Below are positions 1 through 30,915 of a stretch of 56,957 bases of DNA, piece after piece; the stretch's first letter is position 1, and each line of letters opens with the position of its first letter. The translations under genes and the position numbers were made by a program. Below the pieces are notes generated by a model. The model made no database searches, was not told the DNA's origin, and saw nothing but the letters and a program-made list of their open reading frames with translations. Origin of the DNA: a virus (Duplodnaviria > Caudoviricetes); IMG/VR virus record IMGVR_UViG_3300010399_000043, positions 1-56,957 of that record. The stretch is one strand, 5' to 3'.

Positions 1-412
1 AGTGCTGCGTACGCAGCACTGGGAACACCTTCGCCTCGCTGCCGAGTCCGCAGGACTTCATCCAGGCGGCCGACACCTCGAACTGGGTCTTTTCTTTCAC
101 GTCAACGCCACGCTGGACCTGTTTCGACAGAAGAGCCTGAGCTTCACTCATTGTGTTGCATATGGCCCAGTCCGTGACGGTGCCGCTTCCTTCATTGGTC
201 ATGTCGGCCGGTCCGAGAGCGAACCGGCACGCCTCCTCGAGCCCGTCCCACAACTTGCGAAAACCGGGCATCGCCCTGCACTGGGACAGCGAGCGCCCGG
301 CGCGCGCCTGGAAGAGCTGCATCACTTCCTGCAGCCGCCGCGCCTGCTTTTCACCCAACTCCAGGTCGGCGACCGCGTCGGCAACCTCGTCCATCATCGT
401 TCGCGTTTGCAT
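1..412 (-). CDS. hypothetical protein, partial (runs off left edge; MQTRTMMDEVADAVADLELG...)
   Basis: Translated by hand: ATG at 412 preceded by AGGAGAGAACAG; no stop before position 1; directly downstream of hammerhead HH1. Confidence 0.75.
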   Translation of the reverse strand, partial: MQTRTMMDEVADAVADLELGEKQARRLQEVMQLFQARAGRSLSQCRAMPGFRKLWDGLEEACRFALGPADMTNEGSGTVTDWAICNTMSEAQALLSKQVQRGVDVKEKTQFEVSAAWMKSCGLGSEAKVFPVLRTQH

Positions 413-423
413 CTGTTCTCTCC

Positions 424-489
424 TGGCCTGTCATCATCAGGTGCGCGGGGCCACGTGTGCACGACGCCGCTACCCGCGGCGTTTCGACA
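424..489 (-). ncRNA. type II hammerhead ribozyme HH1
   Basis: Minus strand: UGUC-GAAA-CGCCGC(GGGUA)GCGGCG-UC^GUGCAC(ACGUGGCCCC)GCGCAC-CUGAUGA-U-GACA; tail GGCCA pairs with loop-I UGGCC; predicted cut between 463/462. Confidence 0.92.
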
Positions 490-492
490 TCT

Positions 493-909
493 TCAGAGGA
501 TCGCCACGATCGCCTTGTTTGTCTGGTAGACCTTCTCGGCGAGCGGCAACAAGTCCTCGGCTCCGATCAGCCGCAGGAACCTGACGTGCAGGTGGTGCAC
601 ATGCTCGGGCTTGTCATCACCGAGACCGATCCACGCCTCGTCCTGCGCCAATGCGTGGCGCTCTGCCATCGTAGCACCAGCGATCTGCGCGCTGCCTGCA
701 TACAGCAGGCGATCAAGGTTGAGGTTGATGAAGTAACCCTGCTTGGTTGACCGCCAGAACTCGTCGATCAGCTCGCGCGACTCGACATGCCCCATGCACG
801 CGTCGATGACCTCGCGCGCGTTACCAACGTTCCAGTCCGACAGGGCGACTCCCGCCAAGACGGACTTCGCCATAGCGCACAGTACGACGTCCCGTTGACA
901 CAATTTCAT
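493..909 (-). CDS. hypothetical protein (138 aa)
   Basis: ORF with RBS CCGGAGAGAACCAA-ATG; flanked by HH2 upstream and HH1 downstream. Confidence 0.8.
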   Translation of the reverse strand: MKLCQRDVVLCAMAKSVLAGVALSDWNVGNAREVIDACMGHVESRELIDEFWRSTKQGYFINLNLDRLLYAGSAQIAGATMAERHALAQDEAWIGLGDDKPEHVHHLHVRFLRLIGAEDLLPLAEKVYQTNKAIVAIL

Positions 910-930
910 TTGGTTCTCTCCGGTTCTTTT

Positions 931-994
931 TGATCAGCCTCGTCAGGCGCGGTCGATCAGCTCCGCGCGACCGGGCTCTATGCCCGGTTTCGGC
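931..994 (-). ncRNA. type II hammerhead ribozyme HH2
   Basis: GCC-GAAA-CCGGGC(AUAGA)GCCCGG-UC^GCGCGG(AGCUGAUCGA)CCGCGC-CUGACGA-GGC; tail UGAUCA pairs with loop UGAUCG; cut 969/968. Confidence 0.95.
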
Positions 995-996
995 CT

Positions 997-1167
997 TTAG
1001 ACCTCCAAAATGAGGCAAGCGTCGGTGAGCAGTTTACACACCTCGCGCAGGTCGCCGATGTTGTTCACGCCGGGACCGCAGCCCAAGGCGGTGGGGCGCT
1101 CCGCGGCCTTCTGCAGGCGTGCGAGCAACTGCTCGAACTCGGTCTTCTGCTTTTGTTTTACCGTCAT
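997..1167 (-). CDS. hypothetical protein (56 aa, MTVKQKQKTEFEQLL...)
   Basis: ATG at 1167 with RBS CCGGAGAGAACCAA identical to that of 493-909; lies between HH3 and HH2. Confidence 0.75.
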   Translation of the reverse strand: MTVKQKQKTEFEQLLARLQKAAERPTALGCGPGVNNIGDLREVCKLLTDACLILEV

Positions 1168-1186
1168 TTGGTTCTCTCCGGGGAAA

Positions 1187-1253
1187 CGAGCTGTCATCAT
1201 CAGGACCGGTAGCTCAACTCCGGCCGACAGTGCGCTAGGCGCACTGTTTCGAC
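1187..1253 (-). ncRNA. type II hammerhead ribozyme HH3
   Basis: GUC-GAAA-CAGUGCGC(CUA)GCGCACUG-UC^GGCCGG(AGUUGAGCUA)CCGGUC-CUGAUGA-U-GAC; tail AGCUCG pairs with loop UGAGCU; cut 1226/1225. Confidence 0.95.
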
Positions 1254-1549
1254 TCCTGCGGCAGCATGCGCACGATGTAGAGGGTCTTGCCGATCTCGGC
1301 GGAATATATGTCGGGACCGTCGTCGAGCAGCGGGCCGGCGGCCTGCACGCTCTGCACCAAGCGCAGCACACGCAGGACCATGCGGTCGTCGACGTCGTCG
1401 GGTGTCACCTCGTACCCGCGGTACTTGCTGGCGACCTCGACGTGCGCGGAGTTGTAGGAGTGCTTGCCAGCACATCCGCAGCAGCACTTGCCGGCCCGGC
1501 CAGCGTACACGCTCATGACCTGCTCGGTCTTGACGTCTTGGATGTTCAT
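1235..1549 (-). CDS. hypothetical protein (104 aa, CCCGC motif)
   Basis: ATG at 1549 with RBS AGGAGAGATCAAA; stop codon lies at the stem III loop of HH3. Confidence 0.8.
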   Translation of the reverse strand: MNIQDVKTEQVMSVYAGRAGKCCCGCAGKHSYNSAHVEVASKYRGYEVTPDDVDDRMVLRVLRLVQSVQAAGPLLDDGPDIYSAEIGKTLYIVRMLPQESKQCA

Positions 1550-1562
1550 TTTGATCTCTCCT

Positions 1563-1627
1563 TGACTTGTCATCATCAGGCGCGGCGGGTCAGGTCCGCG
1601 CGACGCCGCTACCCGCGGCGTTTCGAC
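1563..1627 (-). ncRNA. type II hammerhead ribozyme HH4
   Basis: GUC-GAAA-CGCCGC(GGGUA)GCGGCG-UC^GCGCGG(ACCUGACCCG)CCGCGC-CUGAUGA-U-GAC; tail GUCA pairs with loop UGAC; cut 1602/1601. Confidence 0.94.
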
Positions 1628-1797
1628 TTTTTCTCGATGCGGTAGTCGTACTTTTGCTGGAAGTCGAAGTCCTTCTCGTCGGGTACGCCGCCGATGCAGC
1701 GGGTGACAAGGAACCGATAGTTGGCGGAGTGCGCATTCTCAAAGGCTGCGCGCCTCTGCGCACCGGCGAGGGATTTGAAGACCTGCTTGAGAAGCAT
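1609..1797 (-). CDS. hypothetical protein (62 aa, MLLKQVFKSL...)
   Basis: ATG at 1797 after GGGGGAGG; stop at the stem III loop of HH4. Confidence 0.7.
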   Translation of the reverse strand: MLLKQVFKSLAGAQRRAAFENAHSANYRFLVTRCIGGVPDEKDFDFQQKYDYRIEKKSKRRG

Positions 1798-1810
1798 GTC
1801 CGCCTCCCCC

Positions 1811-2035
1811 TCAGTGTTTCGACTTAACGATTTGACGCAACGCATCAAACGCCGACTCACCACAGCTGAACGCCTCCAGGTAATGCCGCAACTCGACAGG
1901 CGTAGAACTGTACACCAAGCGGTCGTGCTCGGCGATGATATGCGTCAGCTCGGCGAGCGCCTGCCGCGGTGCATTGGCAAGGCATTGCGCCAACACGCGG
2001 CGCAGGTCCCTGGTCATTCTCTTTGAGATTGCCAT
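1811..2035 (-). CDS. hypothetical protein (74 aa)
   Basis: ORF in tight operon, GAGGGGG RBS. Confidence 0.7.
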   Translation of the reverse strand: MAISKRMTRDLRRVLAQCLANAPRQALAELTHIIAEHDRLVYSSTPVELRHYLEAFSCGESAFDALRQIVKSKH

Positions 2036-2045
2036 GTTTGCCCCC

Positions 2046-2234
2046 TCAGTGCATCGTGCGCATGGTCTGCTCGAACAGATCCAAGCGCACCTCGTTGCCG
2101 TAGACCTGCAGCAGGGTCCGCCCTTTCAGGTCGACCGTGCTGACGATCACGACGTCACCCCAGCGCTCGTGAACCTCGCGGTAAGCGTTGAGGCCAGCGC
2201 GGCGGAACTCGATGGTGGCGCGATCTGCGTTCAT
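2046..2234 (-). CDS. hypothetical protein (62 aa)
   Basis: RBS CCGGAGAGATCAAA-ATG, directly downstream of HH5. Confidence 0.75.
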   Translation of the reverse strand: MNADRATIEFRRAGLNAYREVHERWGDVVIVSTVDLKGRTLLQVYGNEVRLDLFEQTMRTMH

Positions 2235-2254
2235 TTTGATCTCTCCGGGACTTT

Positions 2255-2322
2255 TGTCCTGTCATCATCAGGCGTCGGGAGGACACCCCGACACGACGCC
2301 GCTTACTCTGCGGCGTTTCGAC
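2255..2322 (-). ncRNA. type II hammerhead ribozyme HH5
   Basis: GUC-GAAA-CGCCGC(AGAGUAA)GCGGCG-UC^GUGUCG(GGGUGUCCUCC)CGACGC-CUGAUGA-U-GAC; tail AGGACA pairs with loop UGUCCU; cut 2295/2294. Confidence 0.95.
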
Positions 2323-2577
2323 TCAGCCGAACCAAAAGACCTCGATCGTATTGAGCAGGGCCTTCGCGATGTCAGCGTGTGACGACGGATCGCAAGCAGC
2401 CGCGAACTCCGCGGCTTTGTCGATCGCCTTTGTGCAGTCTTTGCCACATTCCGAGTCGTGCGGCAACTCTTGGAGCGACTTGCGTTCGGTTCGAGGCAGG
2501 CTGTCGATCTGATGAATGACCGCCTTGCCGAAGGGGGTATCGGTCGTGTGTTTTTCGGTGTACTCGAGGATGTTCAT
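2323..2577 (-). CDS. hypothetical protein (84 aa), first gene of the ribozyme-punctuated operon
   Basis: RBS CGGAGAGATCAAA-ATG; stop abuts HH5. Confidence 0.75.
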   Translation of the reverse strand: MNILEYTEKHTTDTPFGKAVIHQIDSLPRTERKSLQELPHDSECGKDCTKAIDKAAEFAAACDPSSHADIAKALLNTIEVFWFG

Positions 2578-3142
2578 TTTGATCTCTCCGTCGTGCCATC
2601 ATTGCACGCTGATGCAGCGCGCAGGCATTTGCGCCGCACGTTGCATCGACTTGCAATGCGTAATTGGGAGAGAAATTTCGCGATCGGGATTCGCGCATGT
2701 CGCACACATGCGCTTGCCGCGGGGCCGGGTGCTGCCACCCACGGAGTCCTGTGCGCCTGTTTCAGGCATGCCTACAGATGAGGCAATGCGCGGGACTCCG
2801 CTTGTCCCTCGACCTGCCGGGGGTTCACTCCTGCTACCTCGGCCGCTGATGGGCGCTCGCAGGAGTTCTGCCGGTGGGGCTGCGGAGGCGGGATGTCCCA
2901 ATTTCGAGGCTGGGGCCCGCCACCGGGCCTTCGCTGTCGCACAGGGGGCTCCGGGGAGCGCGGCCCCTGTTAGGGGGCCGTTGCGGGGCGCTTGCCTGCG
3001 CGACAGGCAAAGTCATCATAACGCCAACTATACTAATGTAAATCGCCGATCGACAGGGTCATCCCTTACGGGATAGTACGTATGCCAGATCAGGACCCCC
3101 GCATGTCGGCACATGTCGGCGTCCGCAGGCACGCCTCGCTGT

Positions 3143-3450
3143 GCCTCGCCACGGCGCCCTGGGTGGGCAAGGGGTGGCGTGCCGTGCGCTGCATGCAATC
3201 ATCCATGGGGCCCCCGAAAACCCTCCCCAGGCCTCCCCCAGGTTGCGGTTTTTCCGGCGAAGGAGAGGCAAGGGGTGGCGTTACGCTCAGATCGGGCATT
3301 TTCCGCACATTTCCGCACACGCCACCCCTTGCCTCTCCTAGACGACCTCCGTAACGCCACCTGTTGCAAAAATGCAACATGCCTCGCCACGCCGCTAGGA
3401 GAGGCAAGGGGTGGCGTGTACTCCTCCAGGCGAAATCATCCATGGGCGTC
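3143..3450. repeat. cluster of direct and inverted GGCAAGGGGTGGCGT repeats in a non-coding region
   Basis: Copies at 3166-3180, 3261-3281, 3317-3341 (inverted) and 3395-3419; 21-bp and 25-bp perfect inverted pairs; palindrome TGTTGCA-N4-TGCAACA at 3362-3379. Confidence 0.85.
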
Positions 3451-3558
3451 CCGAATGACGCGTCAGGGAGGCCCCTAGAGGGACCGTTTTCGCCCGTAGG
3501 CGGTTGTCGCATGCAACTTTCCCGCCGGACGCCCGATTTTCCGTTTGAACAGACGTTT

Positions 3559-5139
3559 TTACAGTAGGTCCACTTTTCCGTTCACGATCGCACGAAACAA
3601 ATCTTCCGAAGATTTGTAGGAGTCCAAAATTTGTTGATCGACGGTGCCTTTAACAACAAAGTCGTAGATGAATACCCGGTCGTGCTTGGACTCCTGCCGC
3701 ACAACGCGCGCGCGCGACTGCTTGCGCTTTATCACCGACACCGGCGCTTCATAGTACATCACGTAGCGCGCCACCTGCAGGTTGAGGCCCATCGACCCCG
3801 CCTTGTTATTGATGATCTGCACCCTGCAGTTAGGGTCCTTGTCGAACCGCGCGAGCTCGGCACCCGCGTCCTTCGTCCCACCGTACAACCGCGCGTAGCC
3901 GATGTTCATGTCGTCGAGCGCTGCGGCGATCTTGTTTCCTGAGTACGTGTACTCGTGAAAGATCACGATCTTGTACTCGTGCGGGATCGTCTCGATCGTC
4001 GCCAGCATCAGGTCTAGCTTGGGTTGTGCGTCGAGCACCGTCAGCTGACGCTCGCGGGTCTCGACGTCGCGGAACCCGACGAAGCCCGAGGAGATCTGCC
4101 GCATGCGGAGAAACAGGTTCTTCGACTCCTGCCAGTCGCCGCGCGCGGCGATCAGCGCGTCGCGCGCCCTGTCGTATATGCCGCGTGCTGCACGAGGCAG
4201 CGTCACGTATTTGATGATCTCGGTGGCACGAGGCAGGTCGATGTCCTTCGCGCGATAGCGCAGCACCCGGTTCGCGAGCACCCGGTGCAGCTCCGCCTTC
4301 TTGCTGGTACGAAAGGTGTACTCATAGCCACCCCACCCGTTCTCCTTTTCCGAGAAGAACGCCGCGCGAAACAGTCCGAGAGTCTCACCTAACGTCTCAC
4401 CCAGGTCGATCAGGTACAACTGCGACCACAGATCCTCGGGGTCGTCGCCGAAGGGTGTTCCCGACATCCCGAGTACGACGTGGGCGCGCAGGGAGATCTG
4501 CCGGCAGATACGAAACGGCAGCGTCTTCTTGTTCTTGACCTCGGTCGACTCGTCGATGACAAGGCCGTCGACGGCCGCGACCAGCTTGCGCACCCGCGAC
4601 ACCACCGGGCGCAGCTTCATAACGACCTTGCCCCGGCGCATGACGACCTTGCGCTTCTTTTTGAGGGGCTTGAGCGCACTGACCATGCGGACAAGGCCGC
4701 CCACCGTCTCGACGATGAACAGGGCCTCGGTCGCGGCGAGCGCTGCCCACTTCTGCTCGGTCGTACCCTTCAGGACGAGGCACCCGGCCCGCGGACTGTG
4801 CTTCGCCACCTCGCGCGCCCATTCGAACTTGTTGGGCTTGTTTGGAACGATGATAAGCCAGCGCTTCGCCTTGCCCATCGCCTGAAAGTAGCGGCCGGCG
4901 GCGATCGCGAGCATCGTCTTGCCGGTGCCGGTGTCGGAGTGGACAGCGACGCGCAACAGCTCCGCGATCGCGATCAGTCCAGCGCGCTGGTGCCGGCGAA
5001 GACGCTTCCAGATGGGTGGGCGTGTAGGCAGGGCCTTGCGCCTCGACAGGAGCTGCCCCTCAGTCAAACGCAGGTACTCGCGGCAGTCACGCCGCGATCT
5101 CTCCAGGTAGCGACGCACCGCCGCCTTGGGTATCAGCAT
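3559..5139 (-). CDS. SNF2/SF2-family helicase
   Basis: Walker A DTGTGKT, VIDES, MSGTP, GSMGLNLQ and QSRARVVR motifs. Confidence 0.9.
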   Translation of the reverse strand: MLIPKAAVRRYLERSRRDCREYLRLTEGQLLSRRKALPTRPPIWKRLRRHQRAGLIAIAELLRVAVHSDTGTGKTMLAIAAGRYFQAMGKAKRWLIIVPNKPNKFEWAREVAKHSPRAGCLVLKGTTEQKWAALAATEALFIVETVGGLVRMVSALKPLKKKRKVVMRRGKVVMKLRPVVSRVRKLVAAVDGLVIDESTEVKNKKTLPFRICRQISLRAHVVLGMSGTPFGDDPEDLWSQLYLIDLGETLGETLGLFRAAFFSEKENGWGGYEYTFRTSKKAELHRVLANRVLRYRAKDIDLPRATEIIKYVTLPRAARGIYDRARDALIAARGDWQESKNLFLRMRQISSGFVGFRDVETRERQLTVLDAQPKLDLMLATIETIPHEYKIVIFHEYTYSGNKIAAALDDMNIGYARLYGGTKDAGAELARFDKDPNCRVQIINNKAGSMGLNLQVARYVMYYEAPVSVIKRKQSRARVVRQESKHDRVFIYDFVVKGTVDQQILDSYKSSEDLFRAIVNGKVDLL

Positions 5140-5152
5140 CCAGGCACCTGCC

Positions 5153-5452
5153 TCAGTCTGGTGACGGCGACCGCGCAGCGGCCCTCCTCCGCCTTCTCCT
5201 GCATACCGGGCAGATGCGCGAGGCCCCTCCGCGCTTCTTCAACCGCACCTCCAGGCCGAAGTCCGCCGCGGGCCAGATGCGCGTAAGGATCATCAGGCAG
5301 CCGGCACGCTTCGCATGCCTGGTGAGATTGGCACCCCGCCCTGTTAGATGGTCACGCAGGCGCCGGGCGAGGCTGTTGCGCGTAACGCCGATGTAGTGCT
5401 GCGCATGCTTGAACGGCGGGTCGAAGTGCAGCAGGTAGACGATTCGGCTCAC
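5153..5452 (-). CDS. GIY-YIG nuclease
   Basis: IVYLLHF...HYIGVT...RRLRDH motif. Confidence 0.8.
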   Translation of the reverse strand: MSRIVYLLHFDPPFKHAQHYIGVTRNSLARRLRDHLTGRGANLTRHAKRAGCLMILTRIWPAADFGLEVRLKKRGGASRICPVCRRRRRRAAARSPSPD

Positions 5453-5697
5453 AGCGGGACCTTCCTGCGCTTCTTCCCAGCACGCGCTATCTGCCCACGA
5501 AGTTTGAGCTGCCCCCGCTCGTGCAGAATCTTGACAGCCTGCATCCGCCTCTGCATCTCCGCAAAGAAGGCGTCGTCATCCTCCGACCTAAGCGAGGCAG
5601 GGAAGTCGAAGGTGAGCAGTCGTGTCGGTACGTTGGCCGAGGCGGCCAGCACCTCGATCACGTCGTCACGTGACCTACCCATTATCCTCGTCGCCAT
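5449..5697 (-). CDS. hypothetical protein
   Basis: ORF overlapping both neighbours in the operon. Confidence 0.6.
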   Translation of the reverse strand: MATRIMGRSRDDVIEVLAASANVPTRLLTFDFPASLRSEDDDAFFAEMQRRMQAVKILHERGQLKLRGQIARAGKKRRKVPL

Positions 5698-7126
5698 CGC
5701 TGCTCTCCTCTCCGTACTCCTCCCGTGCCTTGTCGAGGAAGTCGAAGTACTTTTTGGGCATCATGACAGAGTCGAGGCAGAACTGACCCATGGCGTAGTT
5801 CTGCGTGATCAGGGCTACCCAGTGGTCTTTCTCGTTGCGCGCCTTGTTGATAAACAGCCGTGCAAGGCCGAGCTGCGTCTCGGCGTCGGTTGCTGTGTAG
5901 GTCACCACTACCTCGGCCGTGTGGATCAGTGACCAGTCCTCAGCGACGTGGGTGCTGCGGGTCATCAAAGACGCGGCACCCTCACGCGACACCTGATGGG
6001 AGGCCCACAACGCGTGCGAACGCTCGATCGCCAGCCCGCAGATGTCCTCAAAGTTGCGGCCGAGGTCGATGCGATGTCGTGCCGGGTCCGTCTTCATCAG
6101 GCCGATGTTCTCGACGATGACCAGGTCCGGGATGAAATGCTCCACGACCTCCAGGTTGTCGAGGTAGGCTCGCAGCTTGGCGCCTGTCAATGTGCGCATA
6201 GGGAAGCGTACGATGATTAGGTTGTTCAGCCGCGTGCCGACCGCCTGCGCGTGTGCCTCCAGTTCGACGGCGAGATGGGGGGAAGCGAAGGTCCAGTCCG
6301 ACTGTACCTCGTCGCGCTGCAGTGTGTCGAGGCGACCCAACCTGTCGCGACCCAGGATCGTTATCCCGACTTTTTCCTCACGTTTGGATGCACCGAATAA
6401 GCGCTGGTAGTACCGCTGCGCGATCAACTCCGGTGCCATCTCTTGGCACACGTGCAGCACCTTCTTGCGATCCAGCACAGCCTGCGTCCCGACCTGCACC
6501 GCGGCGTGGGTCTTACCAGCACCGGCGGGCGCGATGAAGAGGAACGGCGAGCCGCGGTAGGGCACGATGAAGTTGTCGTCCAGGACCTTGATGCCTGTTG
6601 TAAACTCGGAGTACTGCACGTCCAGGTACTGCACGACCCGCGCTGTATCGGACAGGCGCAGTCCGGGCTCGTGGTCGATCTGGCGGGCCGACAGGATATC
6701 GTTCCAGATCTTCTCCACCTCCTCGATCGCCATCTCCTGATGGCCGGCGAACTTGGTCGACGACTCCATGATCGCCTGCTTGAGCCGCTGCATCCGGATG
6801 AACTTGCGGATCTCGCCCAGCACGTAGGTCGTGTTGACAGCCCCCGCGAGCTCGAGCATCTGCGCGAGGATGCGGTGGTAGGTGTGGGCCTTGCGATTGT
6901 TCGGGTCCTCCAGGATGTCGGCAACCAGGTCGACGACATGCGCCTTCGGCGCCTCTCGGCACTTCTCCCAAAAGTCGAGGCAACGTTCCGCGATCACGCG
7001 GTAATCACCCTCAAATAGTTCCGGTGAGACGAGCCCGGCGACGATCTTGCCGTTCACGTCGTCATGCGACAAAATTGTGAGCAAGTTTTCCTGAAGTGCT
7101 CCGGTCGGCCGTACTCCTGACACCAT
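5675..7126 (-). CDS. DnaB-like replicative helicase
   Basis: APAGAGKT Walker A, LHVCQEM, SHQVSR, VAED and KARN motifs. Confidence 0.85.
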   Translation of the reverse strand: MVSGVRPTGALQENLLTILSHDDVNGKIVAGLVSPELFEGDYRVIAERCLDFWEKCREAPKAHVVDLVADILEDPNNRKAHTYHRILAQMLELAGAVNTTYVLGEIRKFIRMQRLKQAIMESSTKFAGHQEMAIEEVEKIWNDILSARQIDHEPGLRLSDTARVVQYLDVQYSEFTTGIKVLDDNFIVPYRGSPFLFIAPAGAGKTHAAVQVGTQAVLDRKKVLHVCQEMAPELIAQRYYQRLFGASKREEKVGITILGRDRLGRLDTLQRDEVQSDWTFASPHLAVELEAHAQAVGTRLNNLIIVRFPMRTLTGAKLRAYLDNLEVVEHFIPDLVIVENIGLMKTDPARHRIDLGRNFEDICGLAIERSHALWASHQVSREGAASLMTRSTHVAEDWSLIHTAEVVVTYTATDAETQLGLARLFINKARNEKDHWVALITQNYAMGQFCLDSVMMPKKYFDFLDKAREEYGEESSDGDEDNG

Positions 7127-7129
7127 GTC

Positions 7130-7300
7130 TCAACACCCCGGGCAGCGGTGGGTCCACTCATCTGGACCGACCTTGCGCGCTGCCCAACCCTCTGCCCGAA
7201 GCTTCTCCTGCGCTACCGTGAAGTCCTCGGTGTTGGTCGCCAGAACCTCGTCGCAGCCGTCACACTGGAACACGATGTTACCGTACTCGCGTGTCAGCAC
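7130..7300 (-). CDS. small zinc-binding protein (CDGC...CPGC)
   Basis: GTG start at 7300 after GGAGAAGGAG; two CxxC pairs. Confidence 0.65.
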   Translation of the reverse strand: MLTREYGNIVFQCDGCDEVLATNTEDFTVAQEKLRAEGWAARKVGPDEWTHRCPGC

Positions 7301-7800
7301 TTTTTGTGCTCCTTCTCCCATCGCGCGACCAGCGCCCGACCGCGCGGGGTGTTCCACTCGGGCGCGATGTCCCGTTTGGACTGCCCGATGTTCGGTTTGC
7401 AGCCGAATGAGGTGCGGCACATGACGGGCTTGAACCCGCTGTCGTGGATCTCGCACCTGCCCTCGGTCGTCAGGTAGGTGCATACCATGGGGTTGACGTC
7501 GCCCATCATCATGGACAGGAAAGTGAGGCCTGCGGACAGCTCGGCGTTGTCAGGTGCGTCCTTCCCCTCACGCAGCACGTCCGCGGGGCACAGGACATAG
7601 ATGCGCTCTGTGTTGCCCACCTTGCGGTCGGGTTCGAGCCAGTCACGCATGAGCCTGCCCCCCGCGCCCGCGGCGATCGCGGCCTCCGCTTCCCCGACCG
7701 ACATCCAGCCCGGGTAGGTCCGGCAGCGCTCCACGCATCGGGAGCAGGTGCAGTCCTTTTTCTGGGTGGACCGCGGCTTCTTTGTTTTAGCGGTGGGCAT
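7294..7800 (-). CDS. YkgJ-like (CxxCxxCC) cysteine-cluster protein
   Basis: CTCSRCVERC and CTYLTTEGRCEIH...KPVMCRTSF motifs. Confidence 0.7.
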   Translation of the reverse strand: MPTAKTKKPRSTQKKDCTCSRCVERCRTYPGWMSVGEAEAAIAAGAGGRLMRDWLEPDRKVGNTERIYVLCPADVLREGKDAPDNAELSAGLTFLSMMMGDVNPMVCTYLTTEGRCEIHDSGFKPVMCRTSFGCKPNIGQSKRDIAPEWNTPRGRALVARWEKEHKKC

Positions 7801-8155
7801 GGGTGATCGCTGCCTCCGCGACCTGTAGGGCGCCGTCGAGAAGCGCCTGGTCGATCAGGTGCGTCCGGCTCGTTGGCATATAGAGCAGGGACAGGGCCAT
7901 GCCGAGCGCCTGGGTGGCGATCAGGCGCTTCTCGTTTGTTACAGCCCACTCCCGGTCACGCTTCTCCTTGTCGATGCCCATGCCGATACCGAGACAGGTC
8001 TGCATACCGGCCTCGGTCAACTGCGTCCAGCCGTTGTAGCGATAGGCGAGCCCGCGGTTGATCAGGTCGTCACGCTGCTGCTTGGACGGCATGTCGCCGC
8101 CCATCGTCGGCCCGTTGAGGAACAGGCATCGTAGGGTGTCGTTCTCGTGATCCAT
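7787..8155 (-). CDS. hypothetical protein
   Basis: ATG at 8155 after GGAGTGAGG; operon context. Confidence 0.65.
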   Translation of the reverse strand: MDHENDTLRCLFLNGPTMGGDMPSKQQRDDLINRGLAYRYNGWTQLTEAGMQTCLGIGMGIDKEKRDREWAVTNEKRLIATQALGMALSLLYMPTSRTHLIDQALLDGALQVAEAAITHAHR

Positions 8156-8162
8156 GAAACCC

Positions 8163-8981
8163 TCACTCCACCGCGGCGAATAGGTGCGTCTGCAGGGACA
8201 GGCGATAGCCGCGTTCCATCGCCAGTACGGCTGCGTACTCGTGGTTCTTTTGGCAGCGCTCCCAGTCAAACAGATCGTACTTATGGGGGTGCCGTGACCA
8301 GAACGAAGCGACCTCACCCTCCATCGGAGCGCGCAGGTAGTGGTTGATCGGCGACACGTAGACGGGTCGGCCCGTCGTCTGCGCGAAGTAGTCGGCAAAG
8401 TCCGGCACCTTGTGGTAGAGCGAGTCGGGATCGGCGTCGACCAGGATCTTGAGGCATGCGGCGGCCAGCAGAGCACGGCCCATCTTCGGGTATTTGCCGT
8501 CCTGTGCAACCTTCGGTGACAGCACGACTGTAAAGTCTTGCCTCCAGTGCGCGGCCAGCATCTCGAGATCTTCCGACCAGAAGTAGCCGTTGGTCTCGAC
8601 CTGCACCTGCCAGCGCTTCTCCAGAAAATAGTTGATCAGTATCGCGGCGCTAGGCTGCATCAAAGGCTCGCCGCCGGTCAGTACCATGAGTCGATCTGTC
8701 GGTGGGCAGTTGGGCCGCAGCTTGCAGCGAGCCCTGTACTCAACCTCATGGTCCAGCATTCGTTCGCCCTTACTGAGGGTGAAGGACGTATCACACCAGG
8801 GGCAGCTCTTCTTGGCACCCAGGTTGCAGCCAGCAAGCCGGACGAACACTGCGGACCGCCCGGCGAATGGTCCTTCGCCTTGAAGCGTCGGAAAGATGCT
8901 GGTGACAAGCACCTGCCCGTTGCCCAAGTGCCTGTAGTCCTTTCGCCGCGCGTTGACGTCGCGATTGATGACAACTGTCAT
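8163..8981 (-). CDS. queE: 7-carboxy-7-deazaguanine synthase (radical SAM)
   Basis: SIFPTLQGEG...FVRLAGCNL...CPWCDT, LTGGEP, VETNG, VLSPK and terminal LSLQTH motifs. Confidence 0.88.
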   Translation of the reverse strand: MTVVINRDVNARRKDYRHLGNGQVLVTSIFPTLQGEGPFAGRSAVFVRLAGCNLGAKKSCPWCDTSFTLSKGERMLDHEVEYRARCKLRPNCPPTDRLMVLTGGEPLMQPSAAILINYFLEKRWQVQVETNGYFWSEDLEMLAAHWRQDFTVVLSPKVAQDGKYPKMGRALLAAACLKILVDADPDSLYHKVPDFADYFAQTTGRPVYVSPINHYLRAPMEGEVASFWSRHPHKYDLFDWERCQKNHEYAAVLAMERGYRLSLQTHLFAAVE

Positions 8982-9205
8982 GACCAGAAAAGACCTTTCA
9001 TCAGCTTAGACACGGTTGTGCCGAGCGCGCCGGCGATCGTCGGCAGCTGGTGGATCATGATCCGCTGGCGACCCGCCTCGACGTTGGTGACAGTGACCCT
9101 GTGCAGGTTGAGCTTCGCGGCGAGATCAGCCTGGGTCATACAGATCTTCTCACGGCGCTTGCGGATCCGCGCGGCGAGCTCTAGGTAGATCGGTTCGATG
9201 CTCAT
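8978..9205 (-). CDS. XRE-family HTH regulator
   Basis: IRKRRE..MTQADLA...RVTVTNVEAGRQ. Confidence 0.9.
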   Translation of the reverse strand: MSIEPIYLELAARIRKRREKICMTQADLAAKLNLHRVTVTNVEAGRQRIMIHQLPTIAGALGTTVSKLMKGLFWS

Positions 9206-9420
9206 GACCCCTCCTTCGGCAGATGTCGCGGATCGCGGTACTCGACCACCGCCTCGCGCAGCTCCATTACGTTGTAAGCCAAACTAGATACGCGGACCAC
9301 AGCGAGAATCTGGTCGAAGAACGGGTTGGTGTCGTTGACCTCGTGTGTCTCGAAGGGCTTGAACTCGACACCGTTGCCCAGGTCAAATACCGGGCCGTAG
9401 ATGCGTAGGATCTTCTTCAC
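9202..9420 (-). CDS. hypothetical protein
   Basis: GTG start after GAAGGAGAG; 4-bp overlaps with neighbours. Confidence 0.6.
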   Translation of the reverse strand: MKKILRIYGPVFDLGNGVEFKPFETHEVNDTNPFFDQILAVVRVSSLAYNVMELREAVVEYRDPRHLPKEGS

Positions 9421-9803
9421 GGTCTCTCCTTCAGCCCGACCAGGATCGAGGGAGGCAGCGGGATGCTGCCGTCCGCGCGCGACCATAGGTGCAGACAGTT
9501 CGGATGATTGTTGACGTACTCGGATCGCGGCGGGTGGAACTGTACAACCAGCTCCTCCTCAGACCAGAACAGATTCTTGACCCAGCACATGTCGGCCCAG
9601 CTTGGGCAGGCGTGCTGCGCGCTGACCGAGACGTGTTCCCAGCCGGCAGACACCTCGGTTACAGCGAAGCCGGACGAGATAACATGCAGGAGGTGCTTCG
9701 GCCCGCGCAGCCGGAAGGTCCCGCACATGAGGCCCCGCGGGCTTGCTATCTCACCCGATCTGATCCGGCCTGCTTCCAGTAGCGCCGGCGGCTTGTCTCG
9801 CAT
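9417..9803 (-). CDS. conserved phage hypothetical protein
   Basis: GWEHVSVS...PSWADMCWVK...QFHPP..EYVNNHPNCLHLW motif that I recognise as common in phages. Confidence 0.75.
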   Translation of the reverse strand: MRDKPPALLEAGRIRSGEIASPRGLMCGTFRLRGPKHLLHVISSGFAVTEVSAGWEHVSVSAQHACPSWADMCWVKNLFWSEEELVVQFHPPRSEYVNNHPNCLHLWSRADGSIPLPPSILVGLKERP

Positions 9804-10119
9804 CTGGTAATCCCTTCTGACAATTCGACATACCGTCAGTTCGAGGGTGAGGTCGGTACCGCCGTCTTTGGTAGATGCGGAGTACCCGCGATCTTCGCTC
9901 GGTTGTTAACACCTGCAGTTCTGCCCGGATCTTGGCTATCCTGATCAGCAGGCCGCCGCGGTACTCTGCCTTGCGTATCGACCTGCGTAGGCATCTTTGT
10001 TTGTACTGCAGATCGGCCAGCAGCGCGCGCAGCTCGTCGATGTCCTTCTCGAGGACGCTCACCACCCGCAGCTCGCTGGGCGTTGCATGGCTCTTCCAGG
10101 TGGTCAGGTGGCGGGACAA
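9751..10119 (-). CDS. hypothetical coiled-coil protein
   Basis: ORF in operon; start uncertain. Confidence 0.5.
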   Translation of the reverse strand: MSRHLTTWKSHATPSELRVVSVLEKDIDELRALLADLQYKQRCLRRSIRKAEYRGGLLIRIAKIRAELQVLTTERRSRVLRIYQRRRYRPHPRTDGMSNCQKGLPDARQAAGATGSRPDQIG

Positions 10120-10122
10120 CCT

Positions 10123-10626
10123 TCAAGCACTCCTGTCCTGCGAGCGCGCGAGCTTGTGCAGCAGCCCGGCACCGATGTAGCCTGGAAATGATCGATCGAC
10201 AACACCAGGTATCCTGTGCACTTGCCGCATCATGGTGCGGGACCCGACAGGCAGGGACAGCTCCTCCATGTTCTGACGCAGGAGCCTGATACCGAGCGTC
10301 AGGACCACCTGAAACTGCGTGCGCGTCATGCCGGCCTGCGTATCGCGGAGCGCTGCGCAGACGTAGCGCACCTTGTTTGTGAACTCGCGGTACTCGCGGC
10401 CGGCCCGTAGGACAGAGGCCGGCGTCCTGTCGACGTCGCGGCACACGTCGACGATGCACGACAGGATCAGTGCGTCGTCGCCTGTGTCGACCTGCACCGC
10501 CGAGGCAACCGTAGTTCCAGGAACAGCACCGCCGAGCGCGGCGAGCGCTGCCGACCGCCGCCGCACGACCTCGCACTCGTCTGCTGTCAGCAGGGCCAGT
10601 GCGTCCAGCACCTGCTGCAGGTTCAC
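10123..10626 (-). CDS. hypothetical protein
   Basis: ORF with 4-bp overlap to the upstream gene. Confidence 0.7.
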   Translation of the reverse strand: MNLQQVLDALALLTADECEVVRRRSAALAALGGAVPGTTVASAVQVDTGDDALILSCIVDVCRDVDRTPASVLRAGREYREFTNKVRYVCAALRDTQAGMTRTQFQVVLTLGIRLLRQNMEELSLPVGSRTMMRQVHRIPGVVDRSFPGYIGAGLLHKLARSQDRSA

Positions 10627-11027
10627 GCCGACACCCCGGCGAGCTTCGCGGCGACGTCCCGGAGCGACGCGACAAGATCGTGGTCGTCGCGGATCGTGGC
10701 CAGATGCGCGAGAAGCTGACGCATGGCGGTACTGCTGGTCGCGAGGTCGACGATCCAGTCAGTGGGTGCAACCAGCCCACCGTTGCCCGGCACGTCAACG
10801 TCGGAGAACAGCTTGTTGACGTCGCACTTGAACACCTCGGCGATCTGGGTCAGTCGGGAGCCGGCGAGGCGGTTGGTGCCCTTCTCGTACTTCTGGATCT
10901 GCTGGAAGGTCACACCCAGCATCTCGCCGAGTGTCGTCTGTGACATGCTCGCCTGCTGCCGCATCAGTCGCACCCGCCTGCCGATCGCGACGTCGACCGG
11001 GCTAGGTTGCCTGCTCTTCTTTGTCAT
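10623..11027 (-). CDS. XRE-family HTH regulator (alphaproteobacterial type)
   Basis: PSPVDVAIGRRVRLMR...MSQTTLG..LGVTFQQIQKYEKGTNRL. Confidence 0.92.
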   Translation of the reverse strand: MTKKSRQPSPVDVAIGRRVRLMRQQASMSQTTLGEMLGVTFQQIQKYEKGTNRLAGSRLTQIAEVFKCDVNKLFSDVDVPGNGGLVAPTDWIVDLATSSTAMRQLLAHLATIRDDHDLVASLRDVAAKLAGVSA

Positions 11028-11033
11028 GGTCTT

Positions 11034-11774
11034 TCAACTCCTGTTGGATGTAATCTCAGATCGCATCGATGACATTACCACGGCGGATCGCGACGATCCC
11101 GCCCAGCCGCGTCTACGCTTGGACTTGGCCGCTGTTCTCCAATAACTTAAGTCAGGAAATCGTGCTGCCCGCCTAGTTGCAAGTTCGGGATTTGAGAAGT
11201 TGGGTAGACTCTTAAATCGGCTCCATGTACTGACTTGTGCACCGGCTTTTTGACGCCAGTCAGTCTCATCTCGGTTTAGTTTACCCATGTTGCAGGCTGC
11301 GCACAGAACCTGCACGTTCTCCGGGTCAAGGCGTAGTTCCCAGTACCTGGATACTGGTTTGATGTGATCGACCTGGATATGCTTTTTGGATCCGCAGGCT
11401 TGGCAGGATGGCCCGTATCGCACTAAAGTATCGTAGCGTAACTTTTTCCACGAAAGGCTGGCAAAAAAGCCGCGCTTATCCTCTGCGCGTGTTCGGGGCA
11501 AAACAGGGATCCCTTCTCGGATCCTTTTTGAAATTCTCGATAACGGTATCAAACGTAATGTAAGAGCAGCGACAATGACCCGAGTGCGCAGTGAGGAATA
11601 AGGAGTGCCTGGATCAGGTGGTGTGATCTTTGCCAAGGACTCTAGCGGCAGGACCATCTCTTGGTAGGAAGAGTTCTTGATTGATATACCTTTAGCCTGA
11701 AGATAGTCGTTGCAAGCAGTAGTTAGCATAGTTATGAATCGTTGGTGCCTTTGTCTTCTTGACTTCCTACTCAT
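11034..11774 (-). CDS. HNH endonuclease
   Basis: CQACG...VDHIKP...ENVQVLCAACNMGK; visibly lower GC than flanks. Confidence 0.88.
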   Translation of the reverse strand: MSRKSRRQRHQRFITMLTTACNDYLQAKGISIKNSSYQEMVLPLESLAKITPPDPGTPYSSLRTRVIVAALTLRLIPLSRISKRIREGIPVLPRTRAEDKRGFFASLSWKKLRYDTLVRYGPSCQACGSKKHIQVDHIKPVSRYWELRLDPENVQVLCAACNMGKLNRDETDWRQKAGAQVSTWSRFKSLPNFSNPELATRRAARFPDLSYWRTAAKSKRRRGWAGSSRSAVVMSSMRSEITSNRS

Positions 11775-11805
11775 GTTTGACCTTTCGGTTCTTGAGCTTG
11801 AGGTA

Positions 11806-11833
11806 CAAAACCCCCATTCGTGAGAATGGGGGG
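11806..11833 (-). terminator. terminator-like hairpin ~35 nt upstream of the HNH start
   Basis: CCCCCAUUC(UCAC)GAAUGGGGG followed by UUUUG; the U tract is short. Confidence 0.45.
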
Positions 11834-12120
11834 TTGACCTTTTCGGCCTGTCACTCTCGGTGAACTCGCGAAACTTTTAACAGCGCTTTGCTGTGCGTCA
11901 GGACCTTCCGCGTTCAACCGGTCCTAGGCTATCGACGCTCCCAACCTGTAGCCTTTTACTCGGGCAGAGCCAGCTGAGACCAATCGGGACTGTCAGGTCG
12001 GCCCGGTCCTCTCTCTTCTGCGCTCAGTCACTGAGGGTTTCGAGAGAAGAGACCGGTGCCCTCCGGCTTGTTCCCCCGCGGTCATGTTCCCGCGGCACGT
12101 CCCCTATGGTCGGGGCTGGC
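11806..12120 (-). ncRNA. candidate structured non-coding/leader RNA
   Basis: About nine consecutive hairpins in an ORF-poor gap, ending in the terminator-like stem; strand inferred from the downstream gene and U tract. Confidence 0.45.
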
Positions 12121-28371: not shown

Positions 28372-30915
28372 ATGAAAGCCGCCGGTCTCGGACTCGTCAC
28401 TCCTGACGGGCTCGCACTGTTCCTCAAGCGCGGACCTGACAAGGTGTACAATGGGGGAACCTGGTGCTTCCCTGGTGGCAAGCTCGACGGTGCGGAGAGT
28501 GCGCTCGAAGCCGCCATCCGCGAGACCCGCGAGGAGATCGGCTGGATCGCGCCTGAGGGGGCGGCCCCTCCCGAGGAGGTGGCTGTCACCCAGTATTACG
28601 AGGCGGAGTACACGACCTTCCGCCAGCAGGTCACCAATCAGTTCATCCCTGATCTCGGCGACGGTGAGCACGTCGGCTACGCGTGGGCGCCCTTGAACGA
28701 TCCGCCGCAGCCCTTGCACCCCGGCATGGTCGAGGTGCTGCCACGCATGGTCGCGGCGCCCGTCATTGTCGGAGATTCACGGGCGGAGCCTGAGCATCGG
28801 CTAGTGCTGGAGTACGACGGCGACTTCGATGCCGCTGCCTTGACGCGCACGCTGCAGATTCTTGGCTCGTGGGGGGCTTCCCGTAACGTTGAGGTTGCTG
28901 GCGAGGATTCGGAAACTCAACGCGAGCTCGAGAAGAAGGGTTATCGTGTTAAATTCAATTGGGACGGTGACGGTGCCGATAAAATCTGGTCGGCGGTGAT
29001 CGACGGGGTTGACGTGCTCGTCGTGAAGCCCCCGGCCGAGGACGTGCAGCCGGTCACCGTCACCACGCCGAATACCGCGACCCCGGTCGCCGACCCGACG
29101 CCGCGCAAGCCGAAGCCGCGGGTCGGTGAGGACGAGTGCGGCCTGCCGGCGATGGACGGGTGGGGCCCGTTCGCACGCGACGCCGACTTTAAGGAGCAGA
29201 CGATGGCTTCGATGGACTCATGGGGCCCGTTTGCTGCGCGCCACGAGAACCCGGTGATGGCCGCCGACCGCGCGCTGCTGGAGGCGCGCGCCAGCATGCC
29301 GGAGGCGCTGGCGCTCGACGAGGCCTCGGTGCGGTCCTACGACGAGGACGGCAGGCTGCACGTCGCTGAGTCAAACATCAGCAAGGCCTGCGTCAACCCC
29401 TACCTCGGTCGGGAGATCCCGGGATGGTCGGAGCTCGGACTCGATCCGCAGAAGATCTACTACCTGCTGCGCGATCCCGAGGAGCTCGCAAAAGCCGTCC
29501 CGACGTTCAACAACCTGCAGGTGCTGTCGAAGCACATCCCGGTGACGGCTTCGGCACCCAGCAAGGAGCTGGTTGAGGGTTCACTCGGCAGCAACGCCCG
29601 CTGGGATCCACCCTACATCAAGAACGACCTGGTCGTTTGGACGCAGGAAGGCATCGACGGGGTCGACTCCTCCTCGAAGAAGGAGCTGTCGGCCGCCTAC
29701 CGCTACGATCCCGACATGACCCCCGGTGTATTCGGCGGCCAGAGCTACGATGGGGTCATGCGCAATATCAGGGGCAATCACGTAGCGCTCGTCGAGCGCG
29801 GTCGCGCAGGTGCCGACGTTGTCGTCGGCGACTCAGCAGAGGAGCTCACGAGGATGAGCAAGAAGGACGTCAAGAAGGAAGTGAAGGAAGTCAAGCCGGC
29901 GACCCGCGGTGCGGCACTGCTGGCCTCCGCGCTCGCCTACAACGCCCTGCCCGTGATGGCGCAGGACGCGAAGCCGCTGACCTCGCTCGAGGTTCTTCCG
30001 CTGTTCGCCGATCTGCGGGCCGGCAACTGGAAGGACAAGCGTGAGGGTGTGGTCACCGGGCTCGCCGCCCTCCTCAAGGATCGCATCGCGATGGACGAGG
30101 GTGCCACGCCTGACGATGTGGCACTTCGTTTGATCGAGATGATCGCCGGATCGGCGGAGACGGATGGCGCGTCGGCCGAAGGTTCCGAGTCTTGGGACGA
30201 CCCGGTCTCTCCTGATCAGAACAAGGTCATGGAGGCGGCGGCCGAGGGTCACTCTGATCTCGGCGTTCCGAAGAAGGACGGCGAGGGGGAGGCACCTCCC
30301 GGCGAGGTCAAGAAGGGGAACGACGAGGGTGGCGTTCACGCCAAGATCCTCGAGTTCCTGACCGGCAAGCTGTCACCCGAGGATATGGAGGCCTTCCAGC
30401 AGCTGATGGCTCACGAGGACGAGGCCGAGGAGGCGGTCGCGGGTGACGAGAAGGAAGACGAGGTGGTTGGCGACGATCCGCCGCCGTTCAAGGGCAAACC
30501 TAACCCCGGAGGCAGCATGGACGAGAACAAGGAGAAGGAGAACACAGCCATGGACAACAAAGACATGGTGACGAAGACGGCGATGGACTCCGCGATCAAT
30601 GCGGCGGTTGAGGCTGTCGAGAAGAAGGCCCGCGAGACGGCACGCGCCATCCGCGCGGCCGAGAAGGCGGTTCGCCCGTACGTCGGCGAGCTCGAGATCG
30701 CGGCGGATTCCGCCGACGATGTCTATCGCGCGGCTTTCAAGTCGATGGGCGTCAAGGTCGACGGTGTGCATCCGTCCGCCTTCCCGGTGATCTTGGCGGC
30801 GCAGCAGCCGGCGGGTGCCAAGAAGTCGCGGAAGGACACGGTCGCGATGGACGAGGCCTCGGTCAACTCCTTCACGACCCGCTACCCCGACGCCTCGCGT
30901 ATCGGGTCCGCCTGA
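28372..30915 (+). CDS. NUDIX-domain / DUF2213 prohead protease-scaffold protein
   Basis: Nudix box [70 protein letters not shown]. Confidence 0.88.

Follow-up and report, generated by a model that had tools for sequence, protein, structure and literature searches.

Five predicted type II hammerhead ribozymes between the small genes of an uncultured tailed phage

Hammerheads and genes of the array

The window analysed here, meaning the whole stretch of 56,957 bases, is the linear IMG/VR virus record IMGVR_UViG_3300010399_000043, which has a CheckV completeness of 59% and was identified as a tailed phage by matches to terminase, head protease, tail sheath, DnaB, and other PHROGs families. At its start, the minus strand carries eight small open reading frames (ORFs), running from position 2577 to the contig end, and among them stand five elements with the sequence features of type II hammerhead ribozymes. 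These five elements lie within 1.9 kb, delimit blocks of three, one, one, and one genes, and were named HH1–HH5 in order from 2323 down to 420. The array is listed below in the direction of the minus strand, with the predicted cut sites and the length in base pairs (bp) of the pseudoknot formed by loop I and the 3' tail. The list also gives the copies in which the minimum-free-energy (MFE) fold showed all three stems, and the GC content at third codon positions (GC3) of two genes.

2323..2577, minus: array gene 1, 84 amino acids (aa), orphan; GGAGAGA-type ribosome-binding site (RBS), no hammerhead before it; GC3 0.75
2251..2323, minus: HH1, type II; predicted cut after C2295; pseudoknot 5 bp; MFE fold shows all three stems
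2046..2234, minus: array gene 2, 62 aa, orphan; GC3 0.87
1811..2035, minus: array gene 3, 74 aa, orphan; no preceding hammerhead, 10-nt junction
1609..1797, minus: array gene 4, 62 aa, orphan; no preceding hammerhead, stop codon within stem III of HH2
1559..1628, minus: HH2, type II; predicted cut after C1602; pseudoknot 4 bp; core intact
1235..1549, minus: array gene 5, 104 aa, Cys-rich; phrog_24766 of unknown function; stop codon within stem III of HH3
1183..1254, minus: HH3, type II; predicted cut after C1226; pseudoknot 6 bp, including one G-U
997..1167, minus: array gene 6, 56 aa, orphan
926..995, minus: HH4, type II; predicted cut after C969; pseudoknot 5 bp; MFE fold shows all three stems
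493..909, minus: array gene 7, 138 aa, orphan
420..489, minus: HH5, type II; predicted cut after C463; pseudoknot 5 bp
2..412, minus: array gene 8, at least 137 aa; incomplete at the contig end

When the whole window was searched on both strands by cmscan with the Rfam model Hammerhead_II (RF02276) at its gathering cut-off of 37 bits, four matches were obtained, all on the minus strand: 2253–2323 (44.5 bits), 929–995 (43.0 bits), 1185–1254 (41.3 bits), and 422–489 (39.8 bits). An initial annotation of this DNA had claimed five type II cores on the minus strand and named the Rfam model as a check. The five cores were recovered intact, whereas the check itself was passed by four copies and missed by HH2 (35.1 against 37 bits). 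The alignments to the model span positions 1–66 of 66 in all five copies. In every copy the parts follow one another in the order of stem II 5' strand, GAAA, stem III hairpin (7–9 pairs), GUC, stem I hairpin, CUGANGA, and stem II 3' strand. GAAA and the GUC triplet are present in all five copies and CUGAUGA in four of the five; HH4 has CUGACGA, in which the changed base is the free N of CUGANGA. The extra base that had been noticed after CUGAUGA was seen in four copies as an unpaired U that separates the core from the 3' strand of stem II, and HH4, which lacks it, has a stem II of 4 bp. Stem II is identical (GUC/GAC) in four of the five copies. Read from the sequence, the predicted cut sites are 2295/2294, 1602/1601, 1226/1225, 969/968, and 463/462, exactly those expected beforehand. 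By these features the five elements are type II hammerheads, and we consider it very probable that they are catalytically competent.

No other hammerhead was found in the window at E ≤ 1, the sole other Rfam match being to an unrelated small nucleolar RNA model (E = 0.22). When a model built from the five copies was run on positions 1–12000 with filters off, these copies scored 74–88 bits and the next-best match scored 10 bits, which means that no degenerate or half hammerheads were detected in that interval.

All five hammerheads share the strand of the genes, and each is flanked by a stop codon and the RBS of the following gene. The initial annotation had placed their starts at or over the upstream stop codon. 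In HH1 the stop codon abuts stem II, in HH4 and HH5 it is 1 and 4 nt ahead of stem II, and in HH2 and HH3 it is within the stem III hairpin, at 7 and 9 nt upstream of the cut site. The distances from the last core A to the next ATG are 30, 23, 29, 30, and 21 nt (HH1–HH5), in agreement with the earlier estimate of about 20–30 nt. After each hammerhead comes the same block of GGAGAGA, 6–8 nt, and ATG, and this block is also found before gene 1. Among the 39 gene starts inspected, the exact GGAGAGA word precedes six of the eight array genes and none of the other 31. The word itself is not enriched across the window (10 occurrences against 9.65 expected), and only its placement is special. The two hammerhead-free junctions (1797–1825 and 2035–2056) are 10–13 nt long and have in common a short block over the stop codon and a different, G-rich RBS. 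At the end of gene 3 there is an 8-nt word, composed of the stem II 5' strand and GAAAC, that is the same as at the hammerhead starts and is accompanied by neither stem III nor a core; it may be the remnant of a lost ribozyme or a chance match.

The position of the stop codons bears on a regulatory reading, in which terminating ribosomes would unfold stems II and III, so that the fraction cut would follow upstream translation and tune the output or decay of the neighbouring message. A stop codon that abuts stem II or lies in stem II/III is seen in every copy of the window and, with the relatives described below included, in 43 of the 45 unique copies. Given the size of its footprint, a ribosome would be expected to cover the 5' half of the ribozyme. 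Phage genomes, however, are commonly packed this tightly, and the placement need not have a regulatory meaning; transcription must reach the tail before the ribozyme is whole, and the ribozyme can cut ahead of or between ribosomes; and the predicted accessibility of the RBS is unchanged by cleavage. We therefore regard conditional cleavage of this kind as quite unlikely.

Pseudoknot and covariation

A pseudoknot between loop I and the 3' tail, which is absent from the initial annotation, was found in all five copies, with 5, 4, 6, 5, and 5 contiguous pairs (HH1–HH5) formed by five different sequences. A pseudoknot at this place has been described for most type II hammerheads and is needed for fast cutting (Perreault et al. 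2011, PMC3088659).

For the covariation counts, 49 distinct copies, drawn from the window and from other phage contigs, were aligned with the model; a MAFFT alignment of 45 copies was left out of the counting because it misaligned stem III. Of the cells counted, 95.1% were paired, compared with 62.3% in shuffles and at most 45.9% in slid controls, and changes on both sides were found at 18 of the 21 pairs. The covariation score was 0.766, a value reached by none of the 500 shuffles, against a control value of 0.178. Stems I, II, and III were 98–99% paired, with both-side changes at 14 of 16 pairs, although these stem counts lean on an alignment fitted by the model. The covarying stems I and III agree with the earlier observation that the stem sequences differ between copies while pairing is kept. 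The pseudoknot helix was 82% paired, with both-side changes at four of its five pairs, and this count is more independent because the pseudoknot is not part of the model that made the alignment. In a cross-pairing control, 55% of 1906 loop–tail combinations taken from different copies reached 4 bp or more, as compared with 87% when the loop and tail of each of the 45 copies were paired with each other; the control is weak because many copies have similar loops and tails.

The module in other phages and its genomic setting

Relatives were found with a pattern combining the core and the GGAGAGA word, which yielded 11 loci in viral contigs; because this search demanded both parts, the shared module is partly built into the sample. 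The 11 loci hold 23 further type II hammerheads above the Rfam threshold. With our own model, 51 matches were obtained in total, the window included, and parsing by script gave 45 unique copies. At least five other uncultured phage contigs bear the module of hammerhead and RBS, with up to 15 copies per contig. There are about nine copies in contig L010 (positions 1–8858, own model), 15 in L013/L019, nine in L018, and five in L012/L015. Searches of whole records at E ≤ 0.001 gave 15 copies in a 50.8-kb contig, nine in another, five each in two, and none in one record. The catalytic core is intact in 45 of 45 unique copies, of which 44 have the triplet GUC and one has CUC; after the core, 40 copies have an extra U, three an extra C, and two no extra base. 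The stop codon is located just before stem II in 36 copies and within stem III in seven (two could not be assigned), and an ATG follows the core by 20–36 nt in the 39 copies where it was found.

In L010, an SNF2 helicase (50% identity), DnaB (46%), and QueE (29%) occur in the same order just upstream of the array, and in L013 the C-terminus of SNF2 lies upstream of the array. None of the eight array ORFs matched L006–L019 at E ≤ 1e-5. When positions 1–3600 of the window were compared with the fetched loci by blastn, 12 of the 13 matches were confined to the hammerhead/RBS modules and one was in a coding homologue. Across distantly related phages, then, the punctuation is kept and the genes between are not, which points to a general device for expression or shuffling rather than to a gene-specific regulator.

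Single hairpins are also shared between copies. Among the 990 pairs of unique copies, stem I alone was identical in eight, stem III alone in four, and both in four. HH2 and HH5 have the same stem III hairpin and different stem I hairpins. The 22-nt stem I hairpin of HH2 is identical to that of a copy at 4328–4399 of L018, a stretch without protein similarity to the window. In four records (the window, L010, G001, and G004), the array is located at the contig start, as if assemblies break there.

These patterns raise the question of whether the modules act mainly on DNA, as junctions of a gene-cassette system in which conserved repeats of 70–100 bp between unrelated small genes provide homology for recombination or gene conversion, RNA cleavage being secondary or an added benefit. 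The confinement of 12 of the 13 blastn matches to the modules is what such a system would produce, as is the absence of relatives of the array ORFs from L006–L019 even though L010 shares SNF2, DnaB, and QueE and L013 the SNF2 C-terminus upstream. The same can be said of the hairpin-level mosaics, including the one stem I hairpin common to the window and the otherwise unrelated L018, and of the arrays at contig starts, which are expected if repeats or population variants break assemblies. Pure recombination repeats, however, have no need of an intact core in 45 of 45 copies, and compensatory changes in three stems and a pseudoknot would be left unexplained. Gene conversion between working ribozymes can give mosaics as well, and the module was itself part of the pattern by which the loci were selected. 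A role mainly at the DNA level is therefore unlikely; a cassette system is compatible with RNA processing, and we treat it as an added role.

In a bolder form, which we put forward only tentatively, the hammerhead and RBS block would be the conserved joint of a cassette system in an uncultured phage lineage that has a hypervariable small-gene array behind its SNF2 helicase, and the two ribozyme halves would recombine separately. It is conceivable, if doubtful, that stem III travels with the upstream gene and that stem I, the pseudoknot, and the RBS travel with the downstream gene. If this were true, one RNA element would both cut the message and act as a DNA joint for swapping accessory genes. 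The regulatory cassettes of T4-type phages act much like the joint proposed here.

In the window, the minus strand carries every gene from 11774 to 1, and the following genes outside the array were recognised by PHROGs matches.

3559–5139, minus: SNF2-type helicase
5675–7126, minus: DnaB-like helicase
8163–8981, minus: QueE-like radical SAM protein
minus: HNH endonuclease
plus: large terminase, head protease, and tail sheath

About 1 kb without a convincing gene separates the SNF2 helicase from the eight small ORFs. GC3 in all eight array ORFs is 0.73–0.89, compared with 0.82–0.83 in the two helicases, and the GC pattern by codon position is that of the phage's real genes. Pfam gave a significant match for none of the eight, and only one of them matched PHROGs, namely the family of unknown function phrog_24766. 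The ESM Atlas had no usable match for the two array genes tried, and no relative of array gene 7 (138 aa) came up among the viral contigs searched. A homologue of the Cys-rich array gene 5 (41% identity) is located at 1385–1785 of L020, with a hammerhead directly before it and two more upstream, and a second homologue (L021) has no hammerhead within its 2-kb locus. Because array gene 8 leaves the contig at position 1, the array may continue, and it has probably been cut off by the contig end; as it stands, many other arrays exceed it in size. Megablast of positions 1–8000 against a phage collection gave no match, so there is no close cultured relative in that collection, and the best identity obtained by tblastn with the SNF2 helicase against cultured phages was 31.5%.

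Two features precede the first array gene.

3015..3042, minus: promoter-like site, two sigma-70-type hexamers with a 16-nt spacer and 10 of 12 matches; candidate start of the transcription unit
2578..3014, minus: leader, ORF-poor and GC-rich

By consensus matching, which was also the basis of the promoter call, no terminator-like site was detected on the minus strand within 1–2577. The minus-strand fold of 2745–3075, which extends over part of the leader, has a z-score of −3.23, and at E ≤ 1 Rfam gave no match to this segment. One search of sequencing runs yielded no usable RNA run. A run from wastewater that bears the label RNA-Seq, but is probably DNA and takes the form of contigs, contains a fraction of 0.05 of the words. 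One 330-nt contig of this run matches 2745–3075 almost end to end, with seven differing letters and two small indels, and the run's other coverage of 1–3100 consists of five pieces of 34–49 nt over the hammerhead cores of other organisms; none of these matches bears on transcript ends.

Several further observations concern neighbouring parts of the record. A 20-nt repeat is present in four copies in 3161–3417 (0.03 expected by chance), in the interval from the SNF2 helicase gene to the promoter-like site, with three minus-strand copies and one inverted copy, three of the four being exact and one having three mismatches. Longer repeats at a spacing of about 237 nt overlap it, and it could represent origin iterons or operator sites. 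The QueE-like gene (8163–8981) adjoins the replication genes, the gene order around it is the same in L010, and its presence hints at 7-deazaguanine modification of the phage DNA. An 847-aa ORF at 28372–30915 combines a MutT/NUDIX-like N-terminus (residues ~2–125) with a head maturation protease region (~310–844); a Nudix domain is unusual for a head protein, and any tie to RNA 5'-end chemistry is pure speculation.

Proposed processing of the transcript and comparison with known systems

The best-supported explanation of the array is that it processes one polycistronic phage transcript into separate mRNAs, and we consider this ribozyme processing its probable function. The initial annotation had read the array in the same way; the reading is partly supported, but it is not new, having been proposed by Perreault et al. 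2011 (PMC3088659). The arrangement has been known in phages since 2011, and the window is a regular further example of it.

We infer that a single minus-strand transcript is made, probably starting upstream of 2577, and that it is cleaved in this phage. Each hammerhead would fold as RNA polymerase passes, with a 3-bp open stem II, the stem III and stem I hairpins, and the 4–6-bp pseudoknot of loop I and tail, and would cut after the C of GUC. The predicted internal products measure 693 nt (genes 2–4), 376 nt (gene 5), 257 nt (gene 6), and 506 nt (gene 7), while gene 1 would be carried on the 5' end product and gene 8 on the 3' end product. Because the type II topology leaves both hairpins whole, the upstream product would retain its stop codon and carry a 2',3'-cyclic phosphate at the end of the stem III hairpin, and the downstream product would begin with a 5'-OH on the stem I hairpin, followed by a uniform 5' untranslated region (UTR) and the strong RBS (GGAGAGA, 6–8 nt, ATG). 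Only the short stem II would join the products after the cut, so they should separate immediately. For the phage, the likely benefit would be host-independent processing into messages that are translated separately and have separate stabilities, with standardised translation starts insulated from their context.

The ends left by neighbouring cuts might also be rejoined, giving circular or spliced RNAs of gene length, whether a host ligase of the RtcB type joined them or a chimeric ribozyme, assembled from the two end halves, ran the hammerhead reaction in reverse. The end chemistry suits ligation (PMC6765202), the identity of stem II in four of the five copies would allow neighbouring halves to pair for three of the four internal units, and the pseudoknot is entirely within the 3' product. 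Set against this, a 3-bp stem II is a weak clamp over 250–700 nt, the sameness of stem II is also explained by constraints on the core, and no match to RtcB (PF01139) or RNA ligase (PF09414) was found in the record, itself 59% complete. Moreover, Perreault et al. sought spliced and circular products from such arrays and detected neither, in experiments that their paper mentions without showing the data (PMC3088659). Rejoining of the products is thus very improbable.

Several results weigh against the processing reading. The HH2 match (1561–1628, E = 0.002) is 1.9 bits under the Rfam cut-off, and stem I of HH5 is weak, with 4 uninterrupted bp followed by a mismatch. The MFE folds show all three stems in only two of the five copies, and the z-scores of the folds are −3.51, −0.97, −2.12, −2.36, and +0.11, of which −0.97 and +0.11 are no better than shuffles. 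The energy folder handles nested structures only and cannot draw a pseudoknot; with two of five MFE folds matching, the structural claim rests on the covariance model and the covariation instead. As for the start of the transcript, two promoter-like sites were found in 1–3600 where 0.7 are expected, and the consensus used was of the sigma-70 type, which may not be that of the host. Furthermore, the predicted unpaired probability of the RBS in the uncleaved RNA and in the 3' product is 0.63/0.46, 0.50/0.50, 0.74/0.78, 0.55/0.54, and 0.82/0.78 (HH1–HH5). Unmasking of the RBS by cleavage had been considered and was dropped: GGAGAGA is predicted to be about as accessible in the uncleaved RNA as in the cleaved form, which gives no indication that translation is unmasked by cutting. 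Stabilisation of the products by their 5'-OH ends would depend on the host RNases. A 5'-OH does not protect RNA in every case: in Bacillus, the glmS ribozyme product that bears it is specifically degraded by RNase J1.

The subthreshold score of one copy and the two folds no better than shuffles could also be taken to mean that the elements are inactive relics or chance look-alikes. Against this, five copies occur on one strand within 2.3 kb, all intergenic, with no others in 57 kb; their cores are intact; and their stems and pseudoknot show compensatory changes, which makes this explanation extremely improbable.

According to a 2019 review, the purpose of such ribozymes still needs concrete definition and is open for the hammerheads of bacteria and phages (PMC6765202), and regular arrays are good material for settling it. 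The array in the window offers five ribozymes, six predicted products of known size, and a uniform RBS behind each cut, and the two ribozyme-free junctions in the same operon are internal controls.

The window copies resemble RF02276 in their core, in the order of their parts, in the short open stem II, and in a pseudoknot of 4–6 bp directly behind stem II. They differ from its consensus in that four of them are two nt longer after the core, where an unpaired U and one more stem II pair are found. In a viroid hammerhead, an extra base at this post-core position is tolerated.

The closest parallels are the arrays described by Perreault et al. 2011, who reported prophages in which several hammerheads flank one gene or a short run of genes and proposed transcript processing; tandem arrays from three bacteria cleaved in vitro as polycistronic RNAs of about 2 kb, and one did so in vivo in E. 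coli (PMC3088659). As in those arrays, several hammerheads of the window occupy a few kb of a single phage transcription unit, with varying genes between them. Unlike the prophage arrays of that report, the window is an uncultured, apparently non-integrated myovirus-like contig, and its copies are all type II, with one uniform RBS block behind each.

A comparable division of labour is seen in the early polycistronic mRNA of phage T7, in which five RNase III signals separate the individual messages (cited in PMC3867540). In both phages, five processing signals would split one long transcript. T7, however, uses a host protein enzyme that acts on double-stranded hairpins, whereas the RNA of the window would cut itself and leave 5'-OH and cyclic-phosphate ends, and the RNase III signals and the hammerheads are unrelated in sequence or structure.

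The placement of a hammerhead before an RBS also has an engineered counterpart. The synthetic insulator RiboJ raised protein 2–10 fold and transcript about 2 fold in E. coli (PMC6206723). Like RiboJ, the hammerheads of the window stand directly upstream of an RBS, where cutting would remove the upstream context and leave a 5' UTR that starts with a hairpin. RiboJ was engineered from the hammerhead of a plant satellite RNA and is a single unit, whereas the array of the window is natural, repeated, and of type II topology.

Finally, cleavage in vivo is documented for three type II hammerheads near phage-like genes in Desulfovibrio vulgaris, the ends of which were captured by sequencing (PMC8782182). 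These share with the window the ribozyme type and the phage-like context. As described there, they comprise three copies only, two of them adjacent, whereas the hammerheads of the window form a regular gene-by-gene array.

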